Shown: positions 19,864 through 42,299 of the stretch, piece after piece
Numbering within the stretch: the first letter of the stretch is position 1
Layout of the letters: every line of letters starts with the position of its first letter
The notes under the pieces: model-generated
Told to the model about the DNA's origin: nothing
Databases searched by the model: none
Seen by the model: the letters and a program-made list of their open reading frames with translations, nothing else
Source: a virus
IMG/VR virus record: IMGVR_UViG_3300045988_081729
Direction: 5' to 3' (one strand)
Length of the DNA: 42,398 nucleotides
Position numbers and translations under genes: made by a program

Positions 19864-20226
19864 CTATGAAATAATTGCGCCAAGTAATGCAGACAAGATC
19901 ACGTTGAATGTTTCGGCACAATATTCTTTTGCTTTCTGCATACGGCTGTTTTCTTCCAGGAACTGTACGCCCTCAAACGTAATCTCAAATGGTCTGTCTG
20001 TTTGGGGCATTGGCGCGTCTTTTGTTTTGTCAATGACTGCAAACCCTGTAATATATCCCTTCCTTACAAGTGTTACAATGATCTTGCACCAATAGCTTTG
20101 CGGAATATCAAATAATTTTGAATTCCAGGCAAACTGTTCGAGTTCCGGTTCTACGCCGAGTTTCATGCATTCGTACAGATATCTCAGTATTTTATACATG
20201 ATTACTTCCATGTCATTCTTTGCCAT
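19864..20226 (-). CDS. YjcQ-family winged-helix protein, paralogue 2 (120 aa, hydrophobic C-terminal tail)
   Basis: MAKNDMEVIMYKILRYLYECMKLG...IPQSYWCKIIVTLVRKGYITGFAV...FLEENSRMQKAK. Clear paralogue of the upstream gene. AAGGAG RBS. Confidence 0.7.
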   Translation of the reverse strand: MAKNDMEVIMYKILRYLYECMKLGVEPELEQFAWNSKLFDIPQSYWCKIIVTLVRKGYITGFAVIDKTKDAPMPQTDRPFEITFEGVQFLEENSRMQKAKEYCAETFNVILSALLGAIIS

Positions 20227-20251
20227 TATCGTTTTTGCTCCTTAAACAGTT

Positions 20252-20584
20252 TTATACGAACGGGACCATCTCTTTTACGTCCTTCAACGTCCTTTTTGCC
20301 TTTTCAAGCAACGAATTTTCGAACAGATAGGAAATACCTTTCGGCGTGATAATGGTATCGGGCAGATCGCCTAAAAGAACGCCATCTTTCGTATGATTGA
20401 CGGCAATACCTTTTACATACCCTTCTGTAATCAAGCTTAAAATGATATACTGCCAATAATTTTCGGGAATATTATAGGCTGATGCCGTAAGGTAACACGC
20501 TTCTGGTTTTTCACCCTTTTTCAAACATTCATACAGATATTTCAGTACCTGATATACGATCACAAAGTAATCATTCTGAGCCAT
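20252..20584 (-). CDS. YjcQ-family winged-helix protein, paralogue 1 (110 aa)
   Basis: The track start is GTG. ATG 20584 has an AAGGAGA RBS at 8 nt. MAQNDYFVIVYQVLKYLYECLKKG...IPENYWQYIILSLITEGYVKGIAV...LFENSLLEKAK. Confidence 0.7.
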   Translation of the reverse strand: MAQNDYFVIVYQVLKYLYECLKKGEKPEACYLTASAYNIPENYWQYIILSLITEGYVKGIAVNHTKDGVLLGDLPDTIITPKGISYLFENSLLEKAKRTLKDVKEMVPFV

Positions 20585-20780: not shown

Positions 20781-22187
20781 TCACTCCCATTTCAGATTCG
20801 GATATTTATCATTTATATGATTAATTATATCCTGGAGCACTTTCTCTGTCAATTCAATGTTTTGATGCCTGTACTCGTTCACATAGCATTGCAGTTCTTG
20901 ACTTTTGGTATTTGGCTTGTTGATTTTGGCATGCGTGGCCTCGTGAATCACCGTAATAGCCGTTTCACGAACCGTTTTGGTATTATCAGCATAAATGTTG
21001 ATTTCTCCATCTTCGAAAAGTCCGTCCAGTCCTTCATCAACATCAACTCCGTACCATACCTTTATTTGAATATCATTTTCCTGAAGATATTCCAACATTT
21101 CCGTTCCGATGCTGGACTTTTTCATTTCTTTCATGATATTTCGAGGTTTGATAACGTCTCGCCCCTTTGATCTGCCATCCAATGTTTGGAATATTCCTTC
21201 GTTGTCTTTATATCTTGCCTTTCTGTTTTTCGATGCTTCCCGTTCTTCTGTGGTACCACCCTGTTCCAGAAAGTCCAACCATTTCTCATATTCTGCACTG
21301 TCTTCATAGGCTGCCGTGGAGCAGTGACACCGCGGATGCATCGGCGGCGCGTTCGTCCCCGGCATCATATCCTGCACTTTGAAATGCTTACCATCCAACG
21401 CCTGGCACCGCTCGCAGACATCTGCATTCCCGCAGGCAACGTATGTATATTCTTCGAATCCATTTCGAATATAGGACTGCTTCTGCGCTTCTGTCTGGAC
21501 TCTGGCAAGCTCCGTGACCATGAGCCGCTCTGCATCCTCCCGGCTTGCACCGAAGCGTTTCTGCAGGTGCACCGCAAGCTCCCGCGGGTTCTTGCCCTGG
21601 ATTAGCCCTGTTTTCAGCAGCTTGTCCAGCTCTGCTTTCAGCATATCCTGATACATCCAGATTCGATCGGAATAAGTGGCGTTATGGAATGACGCATCGA
21701 CAATTGCCCGCGCCATTTTTCCATTTTCCTGCACGGAATTGCCAAGAATACCCGCCTGCCTGCGAAATTCTTCTATTGTCTGCTGTGTCAGCGTCTTGTC
21801 AAAATATTTCTGCAGTTCATCGAAACCGGATACCATTTCCAGCCCGATATTGGCTTTCAGCAGTTCCAGACGGTTGATCTTCATGGTTGCATTGTACAGC
21901 CGCATCTCTTCATTCGCCTGGTCGGAAAAATCTTTTTCTTTGACGTATTTCGCCGCTTTCCTGCCATACTCTTCGATATCGAGCTTGGAAACCCTTCTCT
22001 TTGCTTCTGCCAGCGAAATCTTCTCAGCATTGGCGTATTTTGCGTAAAATCCATCGATTTCCTTCTGAATCTGATCCGCCATATACGCATAGGTCTTCCG
22101 GATCTCTTCTGCATAGGTCTGCTCAGACATCTTATTCTTCTTGGCATGTTCCGTCTCACGTTTCTGCCAGTATTCCTTACTCGTCAT
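20781..22187 (-). CDS. Head morphogenesis protein (SPP1 gp7 / Mu F family) with a C-terminal HExxH extension
   Basis: MuF core ...LMVTELARVQTEAQKQSY...CERCQALDGKHF...PPMHPRCHCS... Start taken at ATG 22187 (the track start is TTG 22205). The last ~140 aa are extra and contain VIHEATHA (20931-20945). Confidence 0.85.
   Translation of the reverse strand: MTSKEYWQKRETEHAKKNKMSEQTYAEEIRKTYAYMADQIQKEIDGFYAKYANAEKISLAEAKRRVSKLDIEEYGRKAAKYVKEKDFSDQANEEMRLYNATMKINRLELLKANIGLEMVSGFDELQKYFDKTLTQQTIEEFRRQAGILGNSVQENGKMARAIVDASFHNATYSDRIWMYQDMLKAELDKLLKTGLIQGKNPRELAVHLQKRFGASREDAERLMVTELARVQTEAQKQSYIRNGFEEYTYVACGNADVCERCQALDGKHFKVQDMMPGTNAPPMHPRCHCSTAAYEDSAEYEKWLDFLEQGGTTEEREASKNRKARYKDNEGIFQTLDGRSKGRDVIKPRNIMKEMKKSSIGTEMLEYLQENDIQIKVWYGVDVDEGLDGLFEDGEINIYADNTKTVRETAITVIHEATHAKINKPNTKSQELQCYVNEYRHQNIELTEKVLQDIINHINDKYPNLKWE
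20824..20852 (-). promoter_or_regulatory. Perfect sigma-A consensus promoter embedded in the 3' end of the MuF gene
   Basis: Minus strand TTGACA (20852-20847), 17 nt, TATAAT (20829-24), about 45 nt upstream of the Zn-ribbon ATG. Confidence 0.65.
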
Positions 22188-23511
22188 CCTGTCCACCGCC
22201 GCCAAACATCTGCTTCATCACTGGATCCGCTCTCACCTTGTTCTGATCGGTATCAATTTTCTTGATTTCATCCTGTACATTGTCCACAATAGACAGCACC
22301 CCGAGCTGTGTTTCCTGGCTGACCACACCTTCCAGATTCTTCGCGATCTCTGCCTCTTCCTGCAGGTTTGCCGGGAAATTTGGTGTAAAATGTGGATGGA
22401 TCTTCACCCAGTCATCTTTTTTCATTCCTGAGACCGGATTTGAGAAAATCAGACGATACCTCCGGTTCATTCCGCTGGTAAATTTCCGCTCTTTCGTTTT
22501 TTCCAAGTTACTCATTGCCTGCAGCTTATATTTCATGGCGATGCCGGAACTGGTGCCAAAATTCTCATCCGAGATATTGGCCACCATGCTGATATGGAAA
22601 ATGAGCTTTTCCAGACGATCGATCAGATGCTCCTGCGTGGTATCACCATCCGGTTTCTGAAGAAATTCGACAATCAACCGTTCGGTGTCCCCGTCGAAAT
22701 TAATGATTCTGTCATCCCGGATATGCGCCACATCGTCTTCTTCCAGCTTGGAACCAAGAACCTTGAGATAGGCATCCGCGAAATAGTCAACATCATTGGC
22801 TTTCTCGCTGATCGCCTTGTTGTATGCATTAATCATCGTAAGGACCGGCTCGAAGATTCCCATACGCTCCTTGTTTTCTACGTACTCCGATGCCGGAACG
22901 CCGTCGAAGCCGTGTATCTTCTCGTCTGCATCCCAGAGTAATTTTCCTTTGATTGTAAACCAGCGGACCTTCGTCTCGTCCGATACGCTTCCATGAAGGA
23001 TCTGATTCGAATCGTAATACAGCCGCACGAAATATCGTTCCCTTTCCAGCACGGAATCGTCGTAGATCATGAATGCATCCAGCGGGCTCAGATAGGTGAT
23101 ACCGATATTTCCGTTCTCATCTACGTAATACATTTCATAGCCTTTGCCGAAGATACTGCAGATCTTGGACAGTTCGGCATTGTTATCGTCCTGATCATTA
23201 TACTGATCCAGAAAATCAACATATTTCTCAACCGCTTCGTTTCCATCGTCTACCTGCAGTTTGATCGGATGCCCGATGAAGAAGCCGTTCATCGTATCCA
23301 CGATGTATTTCGCAAAGTTGACCATGATCCGGTTGTCCGGCTTCCACTTGGGCTTTAACGGCTCATGCAGGATCGGGTAATCCGTCTCGTAGGCCTCCTG
23401 CAGCATGCTGTATCTAAATGCGCACTCTCCGGAATGCCGCATGATAAATTCGTTCAATTTGGCATCTGTCAGCGTCTCTTCCGACGGTAGCCTATACAAA
23501 TTCGTTCGCAC
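22177..23511 (-). CDS. Portal protein (SPP1 gp6-like)
   Basis: 444 aa immediately after terL. GTG start with an AAGGAGGG RBS 8 nt upstream. Sequence pattern fits the SPP1-type portal family. Confidence 0.85.
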   Translation of the reverse strand: MRTNLYRLPSEETLTDAKLNEFIMRHSGECAFRYSMLQEAYETDYPILHEPLKPKWKPDNRIMVNFAKYIVDTMNGFFIGHPIKLQVDDGNEAVEKYVDFLDQYNDQDDNNAELSKICSIFGKGYEMYYVDENGNIGITYLSPLDAFMIYDDSVLERERYFVRLYYDSNQILHGSVSDETKVRWFTIKGKLLWDADEKIHGFDGVPASEYVENKERMGIFEPVLTMINAYNKAISEKANDVDYFADAYLKVLGSKLEEDDVAHIRDDRIINFDGDTERLIVEFLQKPDGDTTQEHLIDRLEKLIFHISMVANISDENFGTSSGIAMKYKLQAMSNLEKTKERKFTSGMNRRYRLIFSNPVSGMKKDDWVKIHPHFTPNFPANLQEEAEIAKNLEGVVSQETQLGVLSIVDNVQDEIKKIDTDQNKVRADPVMKQMFGGGGQDDE

Positions 23512-36885: not shown

Positions 36886-37617
36886 TTATACCGCTTCTTC
36901 TTTTTTAAGGTACTTATTCAGAAAATACTGCTGGCCTTTCCCAGTTACCTTTGTAGTTTTGGTCATCCGCACGCTGCCGTCCGGATTGGAAATCACGGTT
37001 TCTTTGATCTGAAATAGACCGTCCGCTACATATCGCTGCGTCGGCATGTTCCGACTGGATCCAGTCTTCATGAGGTACCCTTCGTTGCGGAGCTGTTCGA
37101 ACAATCTTTTCTGTCCGGTATCTACGCCATTCTGACGCAGGAGCTTCGCGAGGTCGCCGATCAGGATGGAGCTGGTGCTTGCGCTCACCGCGTCCGCGAA
37201 GATTTCCTTCGGCTTCATGCGCTCGTTCTCCTCAATCAGTTTCTTGTTATCTTCTTTCAGAGTGTCGATGGTTCTGTCTGCGAGCTTCAGCGCCCTTGCC
37301 ATCACCTGCTCCGGAGTGTTCCAGGCCTTCTCCAAGTCGACGAAGTACTGACGATACAGTTTACCTTTCTCGGAGCGCTGAATCATGCAGATCTGTTTGG
37401 CCATATCTACGGAAATGTTATGATCTATAGTTCTTCCACCGTTTTCTAAATTTTTAGAAAACGTGAAATAGTCCATATTTTCAACAAATCCATATGCTGA
37501 CATGTTTTTAAACCAATCAGCATACTTGCTTTTAATTTCCAGTGCTTCATGCAGGTCTCTCGCCGATACTGTCGGCTGTTCTCCTTCGTAATTAATAGGA
37601 ATCAACATCTTTTCCAT
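36886..37617 (-). CDS. Antirepressor (Rha/AntA-like N-terminal domain + KilAC C-terminal domain)
   Basis: Start ATG 37617 (GAAGGTGAG RBS). VSARDLHEALEIKSKYADWFKNM...FVENMDYF (Rha-like) and ...FADAVSASTSSILIGDLAKLLRQNGVDTGQKRLFEQLRNEGYL (KilAC). Confidence 0.8.
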   Translation of the reverse strand: MEKMLIPINYEGEQPTVSARDLHEALEIKSKYADWFKNMSAYGFVENMDYFTFSKNLENGGRTIDHNISVDMAKQICMIQRSEKGKLYRQYFVDLEKAWNTPEQVMARALKLADRTIDTLKEDNKKLIEENERMKPKEIFADAVSASTSSILIGDLAKLLRQNGVDTGQKRLFEQLRNEGYLMKTGSSRNMPTQRYVADGLFQIKETVISNPDGSVRMTKTTKVTGKGQQYFLNKYLKKEEAV

Positions 37618-37765
37618 GTAACTCACCTTCTTTCTTTTTTCTGTCATCCTGTTTCTGGCTTACCATGGCTTCTCCCATCCCCAAGAGATAGCCCTTGTCA
37701 AAATCAGACATTTTAGGAATTGCCGTTGCGATGGTTTCCAGAATCTGTTTTTCTCTTTCTGACAT
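37592..37765 (-). CDS. First early gene: small protein (57 aa), missing from the ORF track
   Basis: AAAGGAAGTGA RBS. Hand translation: MSEREKQILETIATAIPKMSDFDKGYLLGMGEAMVSQKQDDRKKKEGELHGKDVDSY. Not an obvious HTH. Confidence 0.5.
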   Translation of the reverse strand: MSEREKQILETIATAIPKMSDFDKGYLLGMGEAMVSQKQDDRKKKEGELHGKDVDSY

Positions 37766-37824
37766 CTCATTTCACTTCCTTTCTTTGATTTACCAGCAAC
37801 GCAATACTTTGTTGCTATGCGTCT

Positions 37825-37853
37825 ATTATATGTGGCTTATGGTCATTTGTCAA
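37825..37853 (-). promoter_or_regulatory. Early (lytic) promoter, perfect sigma-A consensus
   Basis: Minus strand TTGACA (37853-48), 17 nt, TATAAT (37830-25). A TGTGGC operator box sits in the spacer. Confidence 0.75.
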
Positions 37854-37894
37854 TATTTTTTTGTGGCTTTTCGACTTTTTGTTCTTATGCCACA
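37831..37894. promoter_or_regulatory. Candidate operator boxes (T)TGTGGC(W)T: two direct, one inverted
   Basis: TGTGGC at 37831-36 and 37862-67. GCCACA at 37889-94. All lie in the divergent promoter region between the repressor and the early operon. Confidence 0.5.
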
Positions 37895-37902
37895 ATTTTA
37901 TA

Positions 37903-37931
37903 TTGATTTTTTTTCTATCATGGGTTACAAT
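37903..37931 (+). promoter_or_regulatory. Repressor (lysogenic) promoter
   Basis: TTGATT (37903-08), 17 nt, TACAAT (37926-31), 25 nt upstream of the repressor ATG. Confidence 0.6.
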
Positions 37932-37956
37932 ACATTCAAGGGAAAGAGGTGAGAAA

Positions 37957-38337
37957 ATGAATGAACGTCTCAAGAAATTAAGAAAAGAATTAGATATAAC
38001 TCAGCAAGAATTTGCTGATAAACTTGGAACCGCAAGAAATAATATCGCCGGTTACGAAACTGGCAAACGCCAGCCAAGCGATGCTGTTATCTCTCTTATA
38101 TGTAAGACAGACTTCCCAAAAGGAAGAGTCAATGAGACCTGGCTGCGCACCGGTGAAGGGGAAATGTTTATCGAAGCGTCTCGTGATGAACAGATCGCCG
38201 CTTTCGTCGGCGGCATTTTAAAAGATGAAGAAGACACTTTTAAGAAAAAGTTCATATCAATGCTGGCCGCATTGGATGAATCAGACTGGGAAGTCCTGCA
38301 GAAAATGGTTGAATTATTGCAAGAAAAAAAGGGCTGA
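37957..38337 (+). CDS. CI-like repressor (XRE HTH, no S24 peptidase domain)
   Basis: Start ATG 37957. MNERLKKLRKELDITQQEFADKLGTARNNIAGYETGKRQPS is a classic HTH_3. Divergent from the early operon. Only 126 aa. Confidence 0.8.
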   Translation: MNERLKKLRKELDITQQEFADKLGTARNNIAGYETGKRQPSDAVISLICKTDFPKGRVNETWLRTGEGEMFIEASRDEQIAAFVGGILKDEEDTFKKKFISMLAALDESDWEVLQKMVELLQEKKG

Positions 38338-38349
38338 TTACCTCAGCCC
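38324..38349 (-). terminator. Strong minus-strand terminator overlapping the 3' end of the repressor gene
   Basis: Minus strand GGGCTGA-ggtaa-TCAGCCC followed by TTTTTTT. The stop codons of both convergent genes lie inside the hairpin. Confidence 0.7.
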
Positions 38350-38442
38350 CAAGATCGCTTTGACATACGTATAGATCAGGAATAATCTCCTATCATCGGC
38401 ATGATCGAGCATTTCAATTATAAGTTTCTTGTAATCATCCAT
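38338..38442 (-). CDS. Candidate 34-aa peptide with its own promoter, RBS and terminator
   Basis: GGAGGG 8 nt before ATG 38442. MDDYKKLIIEMLDHADDRRLFLIYTYVKAILGLR. The same frame is open back to 38622/38706 (94 or 122 aa), but those starts lack an RBS and the frame runs through the promoter. Confidence 0.4.
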   Translation of the reverse strand: MDDYKKLIIEMLDHADDRRLFLIYTYVKAILGLR

Positions 38443-38467
38443 AATATGTACCCTCCGATCTGGTATT

Positions 38468-38496
38468 ATTATACTAGAACATTCGTTCGATTTCAA
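38468..38496 (-). promoter_or_regulatory. Near-consensus promoter for the 34-aa peptide gene
   Basis: Minus strand TTGAAA (38496-91), 17 nt, TATAAT (38473-68). Confidence 0.55.
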
Positions 38497-38602
38497 CATT
38501 TTTTTACCGACCACATTGTTCCGTATATCAGTAATACGCCTCGGTGGGTCGCAAATTAGCAGATTTTGGAAATCGTCCGAAAACTCGGACACTTTCTGAA
38601 AA

Positions 38603-38797
38603 TCACTTATAAGGGCTGTCATATAAATCGTGCATCCGCACTTGCAAGCCCTTAGCAATCTGCTCCAGTGTATCCAATCGCGGTATGCTTCCATTGCACA
38701 GATCATTGAGCGTGGACTTCGGGATTCCGGTCAGAATTGATACCTGCCGGAGAGAGAGGTTTTTCTTATAGATGACTTCTGCAATTAATATCTTCAT
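38603..38797 (-). CDS. Small XRE-family HTH protein (64 aa), divergent from the 311-aa orphan gene
   Basis: KKNLSLRQVSILTGIPKSTLNDLCNGSIPRLDTLEQIAKGL is an HTH_3-type motif. No Shine-Dalgarno. A TACTAT box 4 nt before the ATG suggests a leaderless mRNA. Confidence 0.6.
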   Translation of the reverse strand: MKILIAEVIYKKNLSLRQVSILTGIPKSTLNDLCNGSIPRLDTLEQIAKGLQVRMHDLYDSPYK

Positions 38798-38872
38798 GCA
38801 GATAGTATCTGTAAAATATAAAAAAACATTCTGAAAAAATAATAAAAAATGTACAGAAGGTAAAAATCTATT

Positions 38873-39808
38873 ATGGGAATTTTAGACTTTCTTTTTGGTA
38901 AAAGCAAAGCAGTTGAAAAGCTTGACAAAAATACCATTTACCAAAAATATTATACGGACTATCCTGAAAAACCATATATTTCTAACGAAAGAAATATACG
39001 AGAATGGTTGGAGCGTGCAGAAATGTTTCCAAGTCAATCTTTAGTTTCGAGAAATATGATGGTTCGTTATAATGATGGCTTATTACCTGGTCACATTTAC
39101 ATGTTATACTGGTTAAAAAAATACAGTAATAAAAAAACACCTGCATATTTTGAATATGAATATGGAATTGACTTCGTAGCAGAAAAAACATTTTTAAAAA
39201 GAAATGGCTATCTTGACGAATTAGATAAGCCAACCCCGAAAGGGAATTTAGCAATACAACGTCACTCATCCGTTATCGAAGAAAGACATCCTTCACCAAG
39301 GTATTCTGGAGTTCCTGATGCTTCTTCTCCTGTTATACTGCCTGTCGGCAGAAATATACCGAGTAGCTTAAAACATGGAATTATAACAGTTCCTTCGTCT
39401 GATAAAGTCCTAATTGAAAAAGAATTTAAACAACTAAATAAGCTCATTTCATTTGCTCTTAAACAAGCTCATTTGAGCAATCGTCTATCCATAGATACGA
39501 ATAAATTTCTGTATTCTACAGATTTTACTTTTTATGAAGCATGTCCTTACACGCAAACGGGTAAATTGTCTAAATATCCTTTGTCCCTCCATTACGCATA
39601 TGCTTCTCATAAAGATCTCAATCCTCCGCAAGATTATTTCGGGGAAATTCATTATATGCAAAACGGAAGCATCGGCAAAGCTCGTTTAATTTTTTGGCAA
39701 AAAAAACATGGTTTCATGATACATCTAGCTAAATCAGGTGGAAAATTATCTGTAAAAAAAGTAGAAAAAATCACAGATGCTAAGTGGGAAACCATATATA
39801 AACTTTAA
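38873..39808 (+). CDS. Orphan 311-aa protein, AT-rich, in the lysogeny orientation. Function unknown.
   Basis: Long uninterrupted ORF, visibly more AT-rich than the structural genes. N-terminus MGILDFLFGKSK. No catalytic motif recognised. Weak RBS (GAAGG, 11 nt). Confidence 0.65.
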   Translation: MGILDFLFGKSKAVEKLDKNTIYQKYYTDYPEKPYISNERNIREWLERAEMFPSQSLVSRNMMVRYNDGLLPGHIYMLYWLKKYSNKKTPAYFEYEYGIDFVAEKTFLKRNGYLDELDKPTPKGNLAIQRHSSVIEERHPSPRYSGVPDASSPVILPVGRNIPSSLKHGIITVPSSDKVLIEKEFKQLNKLISFALKQAHLSNRLSIDTNKFLYSTDFTFYEACPYTQTGKLSKYPLSLHYAYASHKDLNPPQDYFGEIHYMQNGSIGKARLIFWQKKHGFMIHLAKSGGKLSVKKVEKITDAKWETIYKL

Positions 39809-39894
39809 TTAATCCGTAATTTTTTGAATTGTTAAACGTATGTACATGGGATATTGTATCCCGCACAAAATACATTTCAAAAAGGAGAATGTCT

Positions 39895-40575
39895 ATGAAA
39901 AAGAAAATCGTAACCCTCATTCTGGCAACTGCCCTCACCGCATCCGCTCTGACTGCCTGCGGATCGTCAACCGCTTCCAGCTCCTCGAGTTCCTCAAGCT
40001 CTTCGTCTACTGCTTCCAGCAGCATCAGCGAGACCGAAACTCCAACGCCTACGGAAGAGGCAACACCGACTCCAACCGAAGAAGCCACAAGTACACAGTC
40101 CGAATCCGAAGACTCCAGCGTTCCGTGGGACTATACATCGGCTCTTAATTCAGCTGAAAGCTACAGTGAAATAATGCACATGTCAAAAGCCGGAATCTAC
40201 GATCAGTTGACCTCCGAGTATGGAGACCAATTCTCTGCCGAGGCTGCCCAGTATGCAGTTGACAATATGACCGCCGACTGGAATGCAAATGCCCTTGCAA
40301 CAGCAGAAAACTACAACGAAACGATGCATATGTCGAAAGCCGGACTCTATGACCAGCTTACATCTGAAAGTGGGGAAAAATTTACCGCTGAAGAGGCGCA
40401 GTACGCTGTCGATAATATAAATGCTGATTGGAACGCAAACGCCCTCGAGACCGCAAAAGACTACCGTGATAACATGGATATGTCGCCAGAAGCGATCCGT
40501 GATCAGCTCACCTCTGAATATGGTGAACAGTTTACCGCCGAGGAAGCCGATTACGCTATACAGAATTTAAACTAA
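39895..40575 (+). CDS. ltp: Ltp-type surface lipoprotein (superinfection exclusion) with three Ltp repeats
   Basis: Start ATG 39895 (AAGGAGA RBS). Signal peptide plus lipobox MKKKIVTLILATALTASALTAC. Ser/Thr/Pro linker. Three repeats: AL.(S/T)A..Y...M.MS...(I/L).DQLTSE.G..F(S/T)AE.A.YA(V/I).N. Confidence 0.8.
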   Translation: MKKKIVTLILATALTASALTACGSSTASSSSSSSSSSSTASSSISETETPTPTEEATPTPTEEATSTQSESEDSSVPWDYTSALNSAESYSEIMHMSKAGIYDQLTSEYGDQFSAEAAQYAVDNMTADWNANALATAENYNETMHMSKAGLYDQLTSESGEKFTAEEAQYAVDNINADWNANALETAKDYRDNMDMSPEAIRDQLTSEYGEQFTAEEADYAIQNLN

Positions 40576-40584
40576 AATAAAAAA

Positions 40585-40612
40585 CCGCCCCGGTGCGCCA
40601 ACACCAGGACGG
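40585..40612. terminator. Hairpin after ltp, with an A tract upstream only
   Basis: CCGCCCCGGTG-cgccaa-CACCAGGACGG (two mismatches), preceded by AAAATAAAAAA and with no T tract downstream. It would be a better terminator for minus-strand read-in than for ltp. Confidence 0.4.
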
Positions 40613-40628
40613 CAGTTGAAATTGATCA

Positions 40629-40674
40629 TCCAGAAAATGGACAATCACCCGGATACATAATACCATTTTCTGGA
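40629..40674. repeat. Perfect 12-bp inverted repeat upstream of the integrase gene
   Basis: TCCAGAAAATGG (40629-40640) and CCATTTTCTGGA (40663-40674), separated by a 22-nt spacer. Confidence 0.8.
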
Positions 40675-40763
40675 CACCAGAACAAGCGAAAAGTTTGTTT
40701 GGTGTTATTTTTGTACCTTTTTTTAGGCGAAACTATCAAAAAACACAAAGGAGGATGGCTATT

Positions 40764-41993
40764 ATGGCTGAAGGAGTTAGAAAAAGAGGAAAAACATGGT
40801 CGTACTATTTTGATACTGCAAAGATAAACGGCGAGAGAAAGAAAATTGAGAAAGGTGGTTTCCGGACGCAAAAAGAGGCTTTAGATGCCCGCGCGGCCGC
40901 GATCGCGCAGTATAATAATGTTGGTCGAACATTCTCACCAAAAGAAATCAGTGTTTCCGATTATCTTGACTATTGGTTAGAGACTGCAATCAAAAAGAAT
41001 ATTGATCACGGATACAGCTATAATACATACCGCGACTACGAATCCAAAATACGTTTACATTTAAAGCCAGCGTTCGGCATGTACAAATTAAGCAGCTTTC
41101 AATATGCTCCGGACAAAGTTCAGGAATGGGTTGACAACATGAAATTAAAAGGATTGTCAAAGCGTATGATTCAAAATACTTTGACCTGCCTGCAGGGCGC
41201 ATTGAACTATGCGATTATACCGCTGAAATACATTCAGGCAAATCCATGCATTCCTGTTAGGGTAGGCAAAATGCCAATAGATCCAGATGCCAAAGCTCAC
41301 GCAGAATATGTATGCCCTGTTGAAGAATTCGAACGAATCCTGCAGCGTTTTCCACCCGAAAACTATTTTCATCTTTCCCTGGTAGTTCCATACAACTGCG
41401 GAACCCGAATAAGCGAAACATTTGCAATTGACCTAAACGAAGACGTAGATTTCCAGAAACATGAACTGCATATCAGAGGACAGTGGCAAAAAAGGAATAA
41501 GACCTGGTACATAAAGCCACCAAAATATGACTCCTATCGTACAATCAAAATGGGAGAAACTCTGGAGCAGGCATTGAAGTACGGCATACATCAAAGAAAA
41601 TTAAACAAATTGAAATATGGCGGCGCGTATTTGAACACTTATGTCATGCCGGATAATTCCATAACTCAAATCAGGGCAGATATCCAGGTTGCTTATAAGG
41701 AAATCACCCCTCTGTGTGTCAAGGATACTGGCGAACTACTTACGCCGGACTCTTTCAAGTATTGTGCCCGGGTTGTTCATTACGAGCTTGGCAATGTATT
41801 GTTTCACTCGCACTGTCTGCGGCATACGCATGGCACTATTCTGGCCGAGGCCGGTGTGAACCCCAAAACAGTTATGGAACGGCTGGGACATAAAGATATC
41901 ACAACGACATTGCAGACATACACATTCAACACAGAGCTGATGCAGCAAACGGCAGTTGATGTATTCGAGAATGCGATTCACAAAAAAGCATAG
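40764..41993 (+). CDS. int: Tyrosine integrase (phage integrase family with an N-terminal arm-binding domain)
   Basis: Start ATG 40764 (GGAGG at 9 nt). MAEGVRKRGKTWSYYFD... arm-type N-terminus. Catalytic ...GTRISE...HCLRHTHGT...LGHKDITTTLQTYTF (R..HxxR..Y). Confidence 0.9.
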   Translation: MAEGVRKRGKTWSYYFDTAKINGERKKIEKGGFRTQKEALDARAAAIAQYNNVGRTFSPKEISVSDYLDYWLETAIKKNIDHGYSYNTYRDYESKIRLHLKPAFGMYKLSSFQYAPDKVQEWVDNMKLKGLSKRMIQNTLTCLQGALNYAIIPLKYIQANPCIPVRVGKMPIDPDAKAHAEYVCPVEEFERILQRFPPENYFHLSLVVPYNCGTRISETFAIDLNEDVDFQKHELHIRGQWQKRNKTWYIKPPKYDSYRTIKMGETLEQALKYGIHQRKLNKLKYGGAYLNTYVMPDNSITQIRADIQVAYKEITPLCVKDTGELLTPDSFKYCARVVHYELGNVLFHSHCLRHTHGTILAEAGVNPKTVMERLGHKDITTTLQTYTFNTELMQQTAVDVFENAIHKKA

Positions 41994-42000
41994 TAAAAAA

Positions 42001-42047
42001 GCGGTTGAACATCTCATTTTAGTTCAGAGTGTTCAGCCGCTTTTCTT
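42001..42047 (+). terminator. Rho-independent terminator of the integrase gene
   Basis: GCGGTTGAACA-(18 nt)-TGTTCAGCCGC (one G-U pair) followed by TTTTCTTG. Confidence 0.65.
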
Positions 42048-42072
42048 GAAAATCGGTCTATTTTATTTTTGC

Positions 42073-42094
42073 GGGTGGCAAATGGGTGGCAAAT
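42073..42094 (+). repeat. Tandem GGGTGGCAAAT x2: candidate integrase arm-type sites
   Basis: Two exact 11-bp copies. Related copies GGTGGCAGAT, GGGTGGCAAT and inverted GCCACCC occur at 42300-42326 (= 1-27). Confidence 0.5.
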
Positions 42095-42299
42095 CGACTG
42101 AACTTCCGCATTTCAAGTCAGCAAACCAGCTTATTTCCTAGAAAGTAGACACACAGTTTCAACGTGCACCGTATATCACCATCATATCATAAGCGTTCTT
42201 TTTTTATCTATCTAGTTCTATGATGATACCACAATCTGCACTTTCTTTCAATGTTTTGCATTTTAGTTATATTCGCTTCTATACCCGTACGCAAAAAGC

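Follow-up and report, generated by a model that had tools for sequence, protein, structure and literature searches.

The cI-rexAB region of phage lambda is a precedent for a prophage-encoded exclusion function beside the repressor gene. For the gene described here, the closest functional analogue would be BstA of prophage BTP1, to which it shows no homology. BstA is a protein of about 300 amino acids (aa) with two predicted domains, the N-terminal one a KilA-N-like helix-turn-helix (HTH) domain, and its anti-phage phenotype was shown experimentally; its mechanism is still unknown, and it has no known enzymatic motif (Owen et al. 2021, PMC8585504). We analyzed a virus sequence of 42,398 nucleotides (IMG/VR record IMGVR_UViG_3300045988_081729; "the window" refers to this whole stretch) and in it a 311-aa gene, here called X, which lies between a CI-type repressor gene and the genes for an Ltp-type lipoprotein and a tyrosine integrase (Table 1). 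Judged by profile searches, X is a member of a large, unnamed, domain-shuffling family of gut Firmicutes prophages. Its genomic context leads us to propose, tentatively, that X may be a lysogen-expressed, nonenzymatic anti-phage factor of the superinfection-exclusion or abortive-infection type.

The initial annotation had described a 311-aa gene in lysogenic orientation, placed in the cargo slot beside repressor, ltp, and integrase and facing a 64-aa XRE HTH gene across a 75-bp AT-rich spacer, and we found all of this where it had been placed. Outside the lysogeny module, all other large genes of the window are on the minus strand. The impression that X is more AT-rich than the rest was borne out by a windowed guanine-plus-cytosine (GC) profile, in which X is the lowest stretch of the window (33.2% versus 46.4% for the window; standard deviation, 3.8% in windows of 936 bp). 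Only 3 of 830 such windows equal X in low GC, and all three cover X. The second lowest stretch, with 37.7%, lies at about 20000 to 20400, just downstream of the gene for the minor head protein MuF. X is under purifying selection in each of its two domains (ratio of nonsynonymous to synonymous substitution rates [dN/dS], 0.13 to 0.28), and the HTH gene is so strongly (0.06 versus prophage L009). Given the open reading frames (ORFs), the spacer, the composition, the HTH match, and the purifying selection on both genes, the sequence-level observation holds, and we take the X and HTH ORFs to be real genes.

X is not the orphan that it had been called. We found 127 homologues among 90% clusters, and a profile search of 1.84 billion representatives (E ≤ 1e-3) gave 609 related clusters at 50% identity. 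A count of the exact X protein gave 377 contigs, and an index of public assemblies lists it in 602 blocks; the whole phage is found as a prophage beside a TRAM/tRNA-U5 methyltransferase gene in long human-gut metagenome contigs. Relatives of X are on 47 IMG/VR viral contigs, one of them 100% identical; the nearest virus record, G001, stops short of the lysogeny module and gives no information on the presence or absence of X. The hosts on record are Lachnospiraceae (Fusicatenibacter, Dorea, Hespellia, and Merdimonas), Acutalibacteraceae, Oscillospiraceae, Erysipelotrichaceae, Streptococcus, Lactobacillaceae, and Bacillaceae. Among cultured phages, only Montmirail (ON453898.1; L047), a temperate phage of Blautia coccoides, matches, and only in the C-terminal domain (33% identity over aa 179 to 276); its 343-aa protein, WAK79202.1 (4335-5366), is annotated as hypothetical and encoded directly upstream of the integrase. 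X had no match in Pfam, NCBIfam, PHROGs, PADLOC, or PDB sequences or in a PDB profile search, so that the family is unnamed, and our literature search found no paper describing it.

The AlphaFold2 (AF2) model of whole X, fed with an alignment of 33 full-length homologues (36 to 88% identity; 28 invariant columns), has a pLDDT of 87.9, and the C-terminal domain (C-domain) modelled by itself has a pLDDT of 93.7 and a pTM of 0.88. Residues 1 to 14 are modelled as a disordered peptide, MGILDFLFGKSK. X starts with MGILDFLF, and MG with a hydrophobic residue also opens 151 of 256 related proteins. Residues from about 19 to 140 form a helical N-terminal domain (N-domain) with a winged helix at its end, residues 141 to 164 are a linker, and residues 165 to 311 form the C-domain, in which one long helix packs on seven antiparallel strands. 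The motifs of the family, all present in X, are DGLLPGH.Y and P.YFEY.YG in the N-domain and SKYP...FG.I.Y...G.IGKA.L..W in the C-domain. The invariant residues of the N-domain include R40, W45, D68, LLPGH (70 to 74), W80, P90, YFE (92 to 94), E104, and H131; conserved positions are mostly aromatic or acidic, plus two histidines, which suggests a binding pocket and not a classical DNA-reading helix. The winged part, the last 50 or so residues of the N-domain, is modelled as an HTH plus a beta-hairpin wing, and its best PDB match is the MarR-type regulator HcaR (4rgr_B; Foldseek probability, 0.95; E value, 0.13; template-modelling score [TM], 0.44). One BFVD relative carries a MarR label, and a sequence-profile search gave no MarR match. 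For the C-domain, Foldseek searches of the PDB with the full and the separate models found no relative (best E values, 0.03 to 0.05; TM ≤ 0.36), and a BFVD fold search matched uncharacterised gut siphovirus proteins only.

As had been noted from the letters alone, X has no recognisable motif: no nucleotide-binding or nuclease signature, peptidase motif, or HExxH was found in its sequence, the libraries were silent, and Foldseek against the PDB found no enzyme fold, which fits a binding or sensing protein. The homology and structure searches revealed no known housekeeping or phage-structural function for X. X lacks a signal peptide, a lipobox, and any transmembrane segment, its hydrophobic stretches are no longer than about 7 residues, and AF2 gives soluble globular domains; the outer side of the membrane, where Ltp works, is therefore not a place from which X can act.

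The domains of X recur in changing combinations. In a domain census of the 256 related proteins, 61 have the N-domain and the C-domain, 41 the N-domain only, and 39 the C-domain only, while 52 join the N-domain to the C-terminal half of the MuF domain (PF04233 positions ~41 to 111; P0067 and P0119 are relatives that match these positions out of 112), and 14 of the 52 also have the motif EYExWLxFLxxGGT. Further partners are a TPR-like module, a helical module termed X1 (phrog_7974/17596), TerB_N, and a transmembrane segment. The order is reversed, C-domain first, in two census proteins and likewise at locus L037. From these combinations, we regard the N-domain as the shared hub module of the family and the C-domain as an independently mobile module. 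The X gene of the window is itself a mosaic. Positions 37036 to 39195, with the 5' end of X and the region upstream, are ~81% identical to the Fusicatenibacter prophage L009, whose X relative ends in the TPR-like module, and positions 38947 to 42172, from about codon 25 of X onward, are 97% identical to prophage L001. Between X and its relative in L061, the synonymous divergence (dS) is 0 in the C-domain and 0.63 in the N-domain, and the crossover is near the domain linker. G026 and G025, whose minor head proteins are 98% and 85% identical to that of the window, have an N-domain-TPR protein in place of the N-domain-C-domain one.

We examined the context of 69 distinct family genes by simple ORF calling and our own profiles of XRE proteins, tyrosine integrases, and serine recombinases; as these profiles miss divergent XRE genes, the fractions are lower bounds. 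An XRE repressor gene lies on the same strand within 1.5 kb upstream of X in 47 of the 61 loci with enough upstream sequence, an integrase or recombinase gene lies on the same strand within 3 kb downstream in 40 of 58, and both are present in 34 of 50. Tyrosine and serine recombinases are both found. X is the sole gene between repressor and integrase/recombinase in L007, L015, L019, L021, L033, and L035. Elsewhere the cargo between X and the recombinase is variable even with identical X (Abi_2 or RhuM in L002 to L006). Among 61 distinct genes directly downstream of X, PADLOC and Pfam matches recurred to AbiD/Abi_2 (7), PD-Lambda-1/T5orf172-MUG113 (3), Ltp (3), Uma2 (3), the candidate defense families PDC-S03 (3), PDC-S57 (3), PDC-S13 (2), and PDC-S05 (2), and type I specificity subunits (2), and single matches include SoFic, SIR2_2, SLATT_1, PD-Lambda-5_B, PBECR3, DUF4258, and RhuM. 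With the repressor upstream and variable, defense-rich cargo downstream, X marks the repressor-proximal edge of a defense-cargo hotspot.

Near X at several loci, our XRE and recombinase profiles picked up neither a repressor nor an integrase. In four loci without detected switch genes (L020, L022, L024, and L025) and in the Bacillaceae prophage L014, X adjoins, in either order, a gene for a DUF4428/SHOCT-type protein of 258 to 318 aa (L014:6703-7479, L020:6943-7767, L022:4996-5817, and L024/L025:6948-7904), a pairing that thus spans Bacillaceae and Clostridia and may be a two-gene linkage. Three of the five DUF4428/SHOCT proteins begin with MGLFDF or MFGFF, and the L014 copy also has a PH_gly_zipper domain (Pfam). 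SLFN_AlbA_2 genes occur in L020 and L022, the latter also with an McrB-like AAA_5 gene, and in L025 we recognized RelE/YafQ-like and antitoxin-like ORFs by eye. DUF4428 and PH domains are reported at the N terminus of those homologues of the membrane nuclease SNIPE that have no predicted transmembrane segment (2025 preprint). A 532-aa T5orf172/MUG113 protein, possibly related to SNIPE (bioRxiv 10.1101/2025.11.03.685801), is encoded directly after the X relative in Fusicatenibacter prophages (L009-L012:6920-8518).

How X might act against phages, the reading that we favor, can be outlined. X is probably made in the lysogen, since it is on the lysogenic strand, after the repressor and before ltp and int, and our terminator scan predicted no plus-strand terminator between X and ltp, which starts 86 bp downstream. 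We infer expression in lysogens, a binding partner, membrane association, and the anti-phage effect along the following lines. In the prophage state, X would share its direction of transcription with repressor, ltp, and int and be transcribed in the window phage from a promoter inside the 75-bp spacer controlled by the divergent XRE protein and in most relatives together with the repressor. The constant N-domain, helical with a winged helix, would be a hub docking to DNA or to a conserved partner, the short MG-hydrophobic peptide may put X at the membrane, and the exchangeable C-module would set which component of the invading phage is recognized: the C-domain here, a TPR-like module in near-identical phages, and a MuF fragment in others. 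An accessory function in conflicts is indicated by the foreign composition, by the exchange of C-modules between phages with 98% identical head genes, by X genes beside defense-type genes outside prophage modules, by the defense-rich neighborhood, and by L112, which has the module layout without X (its HTH cassette faces Ltp and then a recombinase).

Several points weigh against an anti-phage role. The case for it is guilt by association: the defense-rich neighbors in the 61-gene census agree with the initial proposal of an undescribed exclusion or abortive-infection factor, but no known defense model matches X. The check with PADLOC-DB v2, which includes BstA and the Abi families, gave 0 families at E ≤ 1, and PADLOC on the N-domain and C-domain relatives gave 0 as well, save for the TerB_N part of P0194, which matched SngA. 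X varies less than the cargo that follows it (L002 to L006 have the same X and differing cargo), and all 11 closest phages have an X-family gene. In 14 of 51 loci, the junction between repressor and X is tight or overlapping (−20 to +65 bp), as would suit a regulatory partner of the switch just as well. In the presumed recognition helix, the 33-sequence alignment shows an invariant Glu but no basic residue that is invariant, so that DNA binding by the winged helix is doubtful. Finally, the amphipathic membrane-targeting peptide of the initial annotation agrees with the MG-hydrophobic start of many relatives, but the peptide is a short one, is disordered in the AF2 model, and has only moderate amphipathicity (hydrophobic moment, 0.23 to 0.54). 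We therefore regard X as a reasonable candidate for a new exclusion or defense factor, with candidate status only.

Table 1. Coordinates of X and of other features of the window, with the basis of each assignment
Feature	Coordinates	Strand	Basis
X (311-aa gene)	38873..39808	+	ORF list
N-domain coding part of X (aa 19-140)	38927..39292	+	Alignment of 33 homologues; Foldseek to 4rgr_B
C-domain coding part of X (aa 165-311)	39365..39805	+	Profile searches, AF2 model
Spacer between divergent X and HTH genes, 75 bp	38798..38872	.	20% GC
XRE/Cro-type HTH gene, 64 aa	38603..38797	-	ORF list; Pfam HTH_26 (PF13443) 3e-9, HTH_3 (PF01381) 7e-9
34-aa ORF, 3' of HTH gene, partner in HTH cassette	38338..38442	-	ORF list; motif shared with other phages
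CI-type XRE repressor, 126 aa, without S24 cleavage domain	37957..38337	+	Pfam HTH_3 2e-12
Ltp-type superinfection-exclusion lipoprotein, 3 Ltp repeats	39895..40575	+	Pfam PF07553 4e-74, phrog_4980
Tyrosine integrase, end of lysogeny module	40764..41993	+	Pfam Phage_integrase, Arm-DNA-bind_4, SAM_3
MuF minor head protein, 474 aa, after portal gene	20781..22205	-	Own MuF-C profile

The junctions between repressor and X lead to the first alternative, that X serves the lysis-lysogeny switch as an accessory component, either a repressor-linked sensor or co-regulator analogous to ImmA or a winged-helix regulator of the cargo/integrase operon, with the C-module sensing a signal. X directly follows a CI-type repressor across Lachnospiraceae, Acutalibacteraceae, Streptococcus, and Bacillaceae, often with tiny or overlapping junctions, is the sole gene between repressor and recombinase in several phages, and has a MarR-like winged helix. 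Its presence in 11 of 11 closest phages and its constancy relative to the cargo count here in favor, as does the window repressor, which has no cleavage domain, with no ImmA domain among the lysogeny-module proteins scanned. However, the repressors beside X differ (short XRE proteins without S24, an XRE-S24 protein in L002 by Pfam, and others of ~210 to 270 aa, in which S24 was not checked), which makes one common anti-repressor mechanism unlikely. X has neither HExxH nor a peptidase fold, X genes also lie in loci without a repressor or integrase detected by our profiles, and the module layout of L112 works without X. A separate Peptidase_M78 (PF06114) ImmA gene stands beside X in L014; with both genes there and the XRE-S24 repressor in L002, X is unlikely to be a substitute for ImmA. 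On balance, a role in the switch seems to us unlikely, though it deserves to be kept in view.

The divergent HTH gene bears on a second alternative. Its product is of XRE/Cro type (PF13443, 37.4 bits with a cutoff of 22; PF01381, 36.1 bits with a cutoff of 23). The initial annotation had noted the lack of a Shine-Dalgarno sequence, and we likewise found nothing similar to one in the 15 nt before the start codon. A −10-like TATATT ends 17 nt upstream of the ATG, and a transcript from it would have a short leader without a Shine-Dalgarno sequence. In the public records that we fetched (L009 to L012 and L106 to L111), no gene is called where the HTH homologue lies, probably because it has no ribosome-binding site. 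The spacer holds a palindrome, CAGATA-G-TATCTG (38799-38811), that abuts the HTH start codon, a 23-nt tandem repeat at 38813-38858, and the AGAAGG ribosome-binding site of X. These elements may serve as operator and promoter; a promoter scan of the spacer gave only weak candidates and no convincing consensus sigma-70 promoter for X or HTH. In Fusicatenibacter-type prophages (among them L009/L010), the spacer is near-identical, as is the start of X over ~20 codons, and both are better kept than the flanking coding DNA. Around the 34-aa ORF, a promoter (TTGAAA-17-TATAAT at 38496..38468) and a terminator (38350..38330) are predicted.

The divergent pairing of X and HTH recurs only in the lineage of the window and in Fusicatenibacter-type prophages (L009 to L012, L059, and L077 to L080). 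Homologues of the HTH protein, 51 to 98% identical, occupy the same module position in other prophages, and three of them, with 51 to 67% identity, stand in other contexts (L112, L113, and L116). These three share the order repressor, opposite-strand ORF of 30 to 42 aa plus HTH, divergent gene, and integrase/recombinase. The gene facing the cassette is in no case an X relative: it encodes Ltp in L112, a 221-aa protein with a C-terminal hydrophobic segment in L113, and a 418-aa protein with an N-terminal hydrophobic, signal-like segment in L116. The 34-aa ORF and the small ORFs beside HTH homologues (L112:4409-4537, L113:4337-4429, and L116:4445-4762) have in common the motif acidic-x-x-L-x-x-IY-x-h-h-x-x-h-L; a signal sequence is absent from the three short ones. 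HTH gene and micro-protein ORF thus appear, from their conserved order and motif, as a conserved cassette between repressor and cargo. Because this cassette faces unrelated genes in three other phages, we read the HTH protein as a module-level regulator, which most likely controls the promoter of the entire cargo-integrase unit, and rejected it as a dedicated regulator of X. Of the proposed local regulation of X by its HTH partner, the pairing is real, but it is not specific to X, and most relatives directly follow a CI-type repressor without an HTH gene of their own. The prophage L112, which shares the cassette, has a Tad2-like (anti-Thoeris) gene in its early region (L112:5935-6165).

The second alternative gives X no anti-phage role: X would be a lysogenic-conversion or selfish addiction function, either a toxic or growth-modulating protein checked by the 64-aa XRE protein or a factor of host physiology. 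The small divergent controller and the strongly conserved spacer with its palindrome would suit this, as would a weak PADLOC match of the HTH protein to HTH_VI, the AT-rich foreign composition of X, and toxin-antitoxin-like neighbors at some X loci. Yet most X genes lack such a controller, the HTH cassette faces unrelated cargo elsewhere, and X contains no toxin-like domain, and we consider the idea improbable.

The MuF half in many relatives raises the question of a link to the phage's own minor head protein. The MuF protein of the window has a conserved part, residues 1 to ~320, ending in EYEKWLDFLEQGGTTEE, which is followed by a C-terminal domain with a HEATH (HExxH) metallopeptidase motif. 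In 30 related IMG/VR phages, the first ~320 residues are kept and the C-terminal part is exchanged, which is the pattern of polymorphic effectors. The MuF-derived module of X relatives is 54% identical to the matching part of the window MuF. The relative P0056 (L013:910-2235) combines a zinc ribbon, recognized by eye, with the N-domain, the MuF C-half, and DUF6883, a BECR RNase toxin domain classed as toxin family BECR-Tox3 in a 2026 preprint. Its gene is preceded by an XRE gene and followed by a 73-aa ORF, possibly an immunity gene, and then by genes for a Prp peptidase, scaffold, capsid, and connector; L013, a short contig of 5.4 kb, could be a satellite or have an unusual phage layout.

These observations allow two readings that connect X with MuF. 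In the bolder version of the anti-phage proposal, the family would be a new modular prophage system with a constant winged-helix hub and interchangeable target-recognition modules, some of them MuF-derived (MuF C-half plus WLxFLxxGGT) decoys that trap or poison the portal/head-assembly machinery or the incoming DNA-end complex of superinfecting relatives, with the C-domain of the window as another specificity module; we consider this a long shot. Such decoy-type interference would concern the MuF-bearing relatives only. PF04233 is not matched by the X of the window, and our MuF-C profile, run over the window, matches the true MuF only. The weakest alternative ties X itself to MuF, as immunity of the lysogen to a MuF-borne C-terminal effector from sibling virions or as a portal/MuF assembly factor; it could draw on the roughly 50 relatives with such a fusion (16 with EYExWLxFLxxGGT), the 54% identity to the phage's own MuF, the DUF6883 domain of P0056, and the polymorphic MuF C-terminal regions, but with no MuF module in X, its N-domain absent from canonical MuF proteins, and discordant pairs among near-identical phages (G026/G025 share the MuF C terminus of the window with a different X C-module, and G013 combines the same X [92%] with another MuF C terminus), it is very unlikely, and cognate immunity, unsupported when MuF C termini were set against X types in the 30 IMG/VR records, was rejected as the principal explanation.

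Hardly any experiments have addressed the temperate phages of Lachnospiraceae and other gut Clostridia, which are abundant. The X family is common in these phages and has a fixed place heading a hotspot in which genes for AbiD, Ltp, T5orf172 nuclease, and other defense functions gather. If the anti-phage proposal is true, X would represent a new nonenzymatic, domain-swapping family in the prophage defense of Gram-positive gut bacteria and would mark a predictable hotspot for finding more defense genes; if X instead belongs to the switch, induction control in gut prophages would have a widespread component that had gone unrecognized. Either role is directly testable, because Blautia coccoides and phage Montmirail, with a C-domain relative in the same slot, offer a cultured system.

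Compared with known systems, X resembles MarR regulators in the end of its N-domain, modelled as an HTH with a beta-hairpin wing and matched to HcaR with a Foldseek probability of 0.95, but the TM is only 0.44, no MarR Pfam family matches, and X has a further helical subdomain, also conserved, whereas basic recognition residues are not conserved in it. With MuF/SPP1 gp7 proteins and MuF polymorphic toxins (PF04233; Jamet et al. 2017, PMC5576092), the family shares the MuF C-half and the motif following it in many relatives and, in one, a BECR toxin domain; unlike these, the X of the window has no MuF part, and the MuF-bearing relatives are mostly in the lysogeny module and not by the portal gene. 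Ltp/Sie proteins (PF07553; Ltp of TP-J34) occupy the same slot in the same orientation, with X directly upstream of Ltp in the window and its closest relatives, but X lacks a signal peptide, a lipobox, and transmembrane segments. The order repressor-X-integrase and the frequent tight coupling of X to the repressor gene recall ImmA/IrrE (Peptidase_M78; immR-immA-int of ICEBs1), whereas X has no HExxH, PF06114 match, or peptidase fold and accompanies ImmA in L014 and, in L002, a self-cleaving S24 repressor. From BstA, which is found in Gram-negative hosts, X differs in having no sequence or profile similarity to it and no KilA-N match; the aba self-immunity DNA element of BstA has no demonstrated counterpart at X, and to aba, which overlaps the start of its gene, the conservation seen upstream of X and over its first ~20 codons is a loose parallel only. 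What the two would have in common is the overall plan, a single prophage protein of about 300 aa without an enzymatic motif, built of two predicted domains of which the N-terminal one has an HTH-type fold, MarR-like in X.

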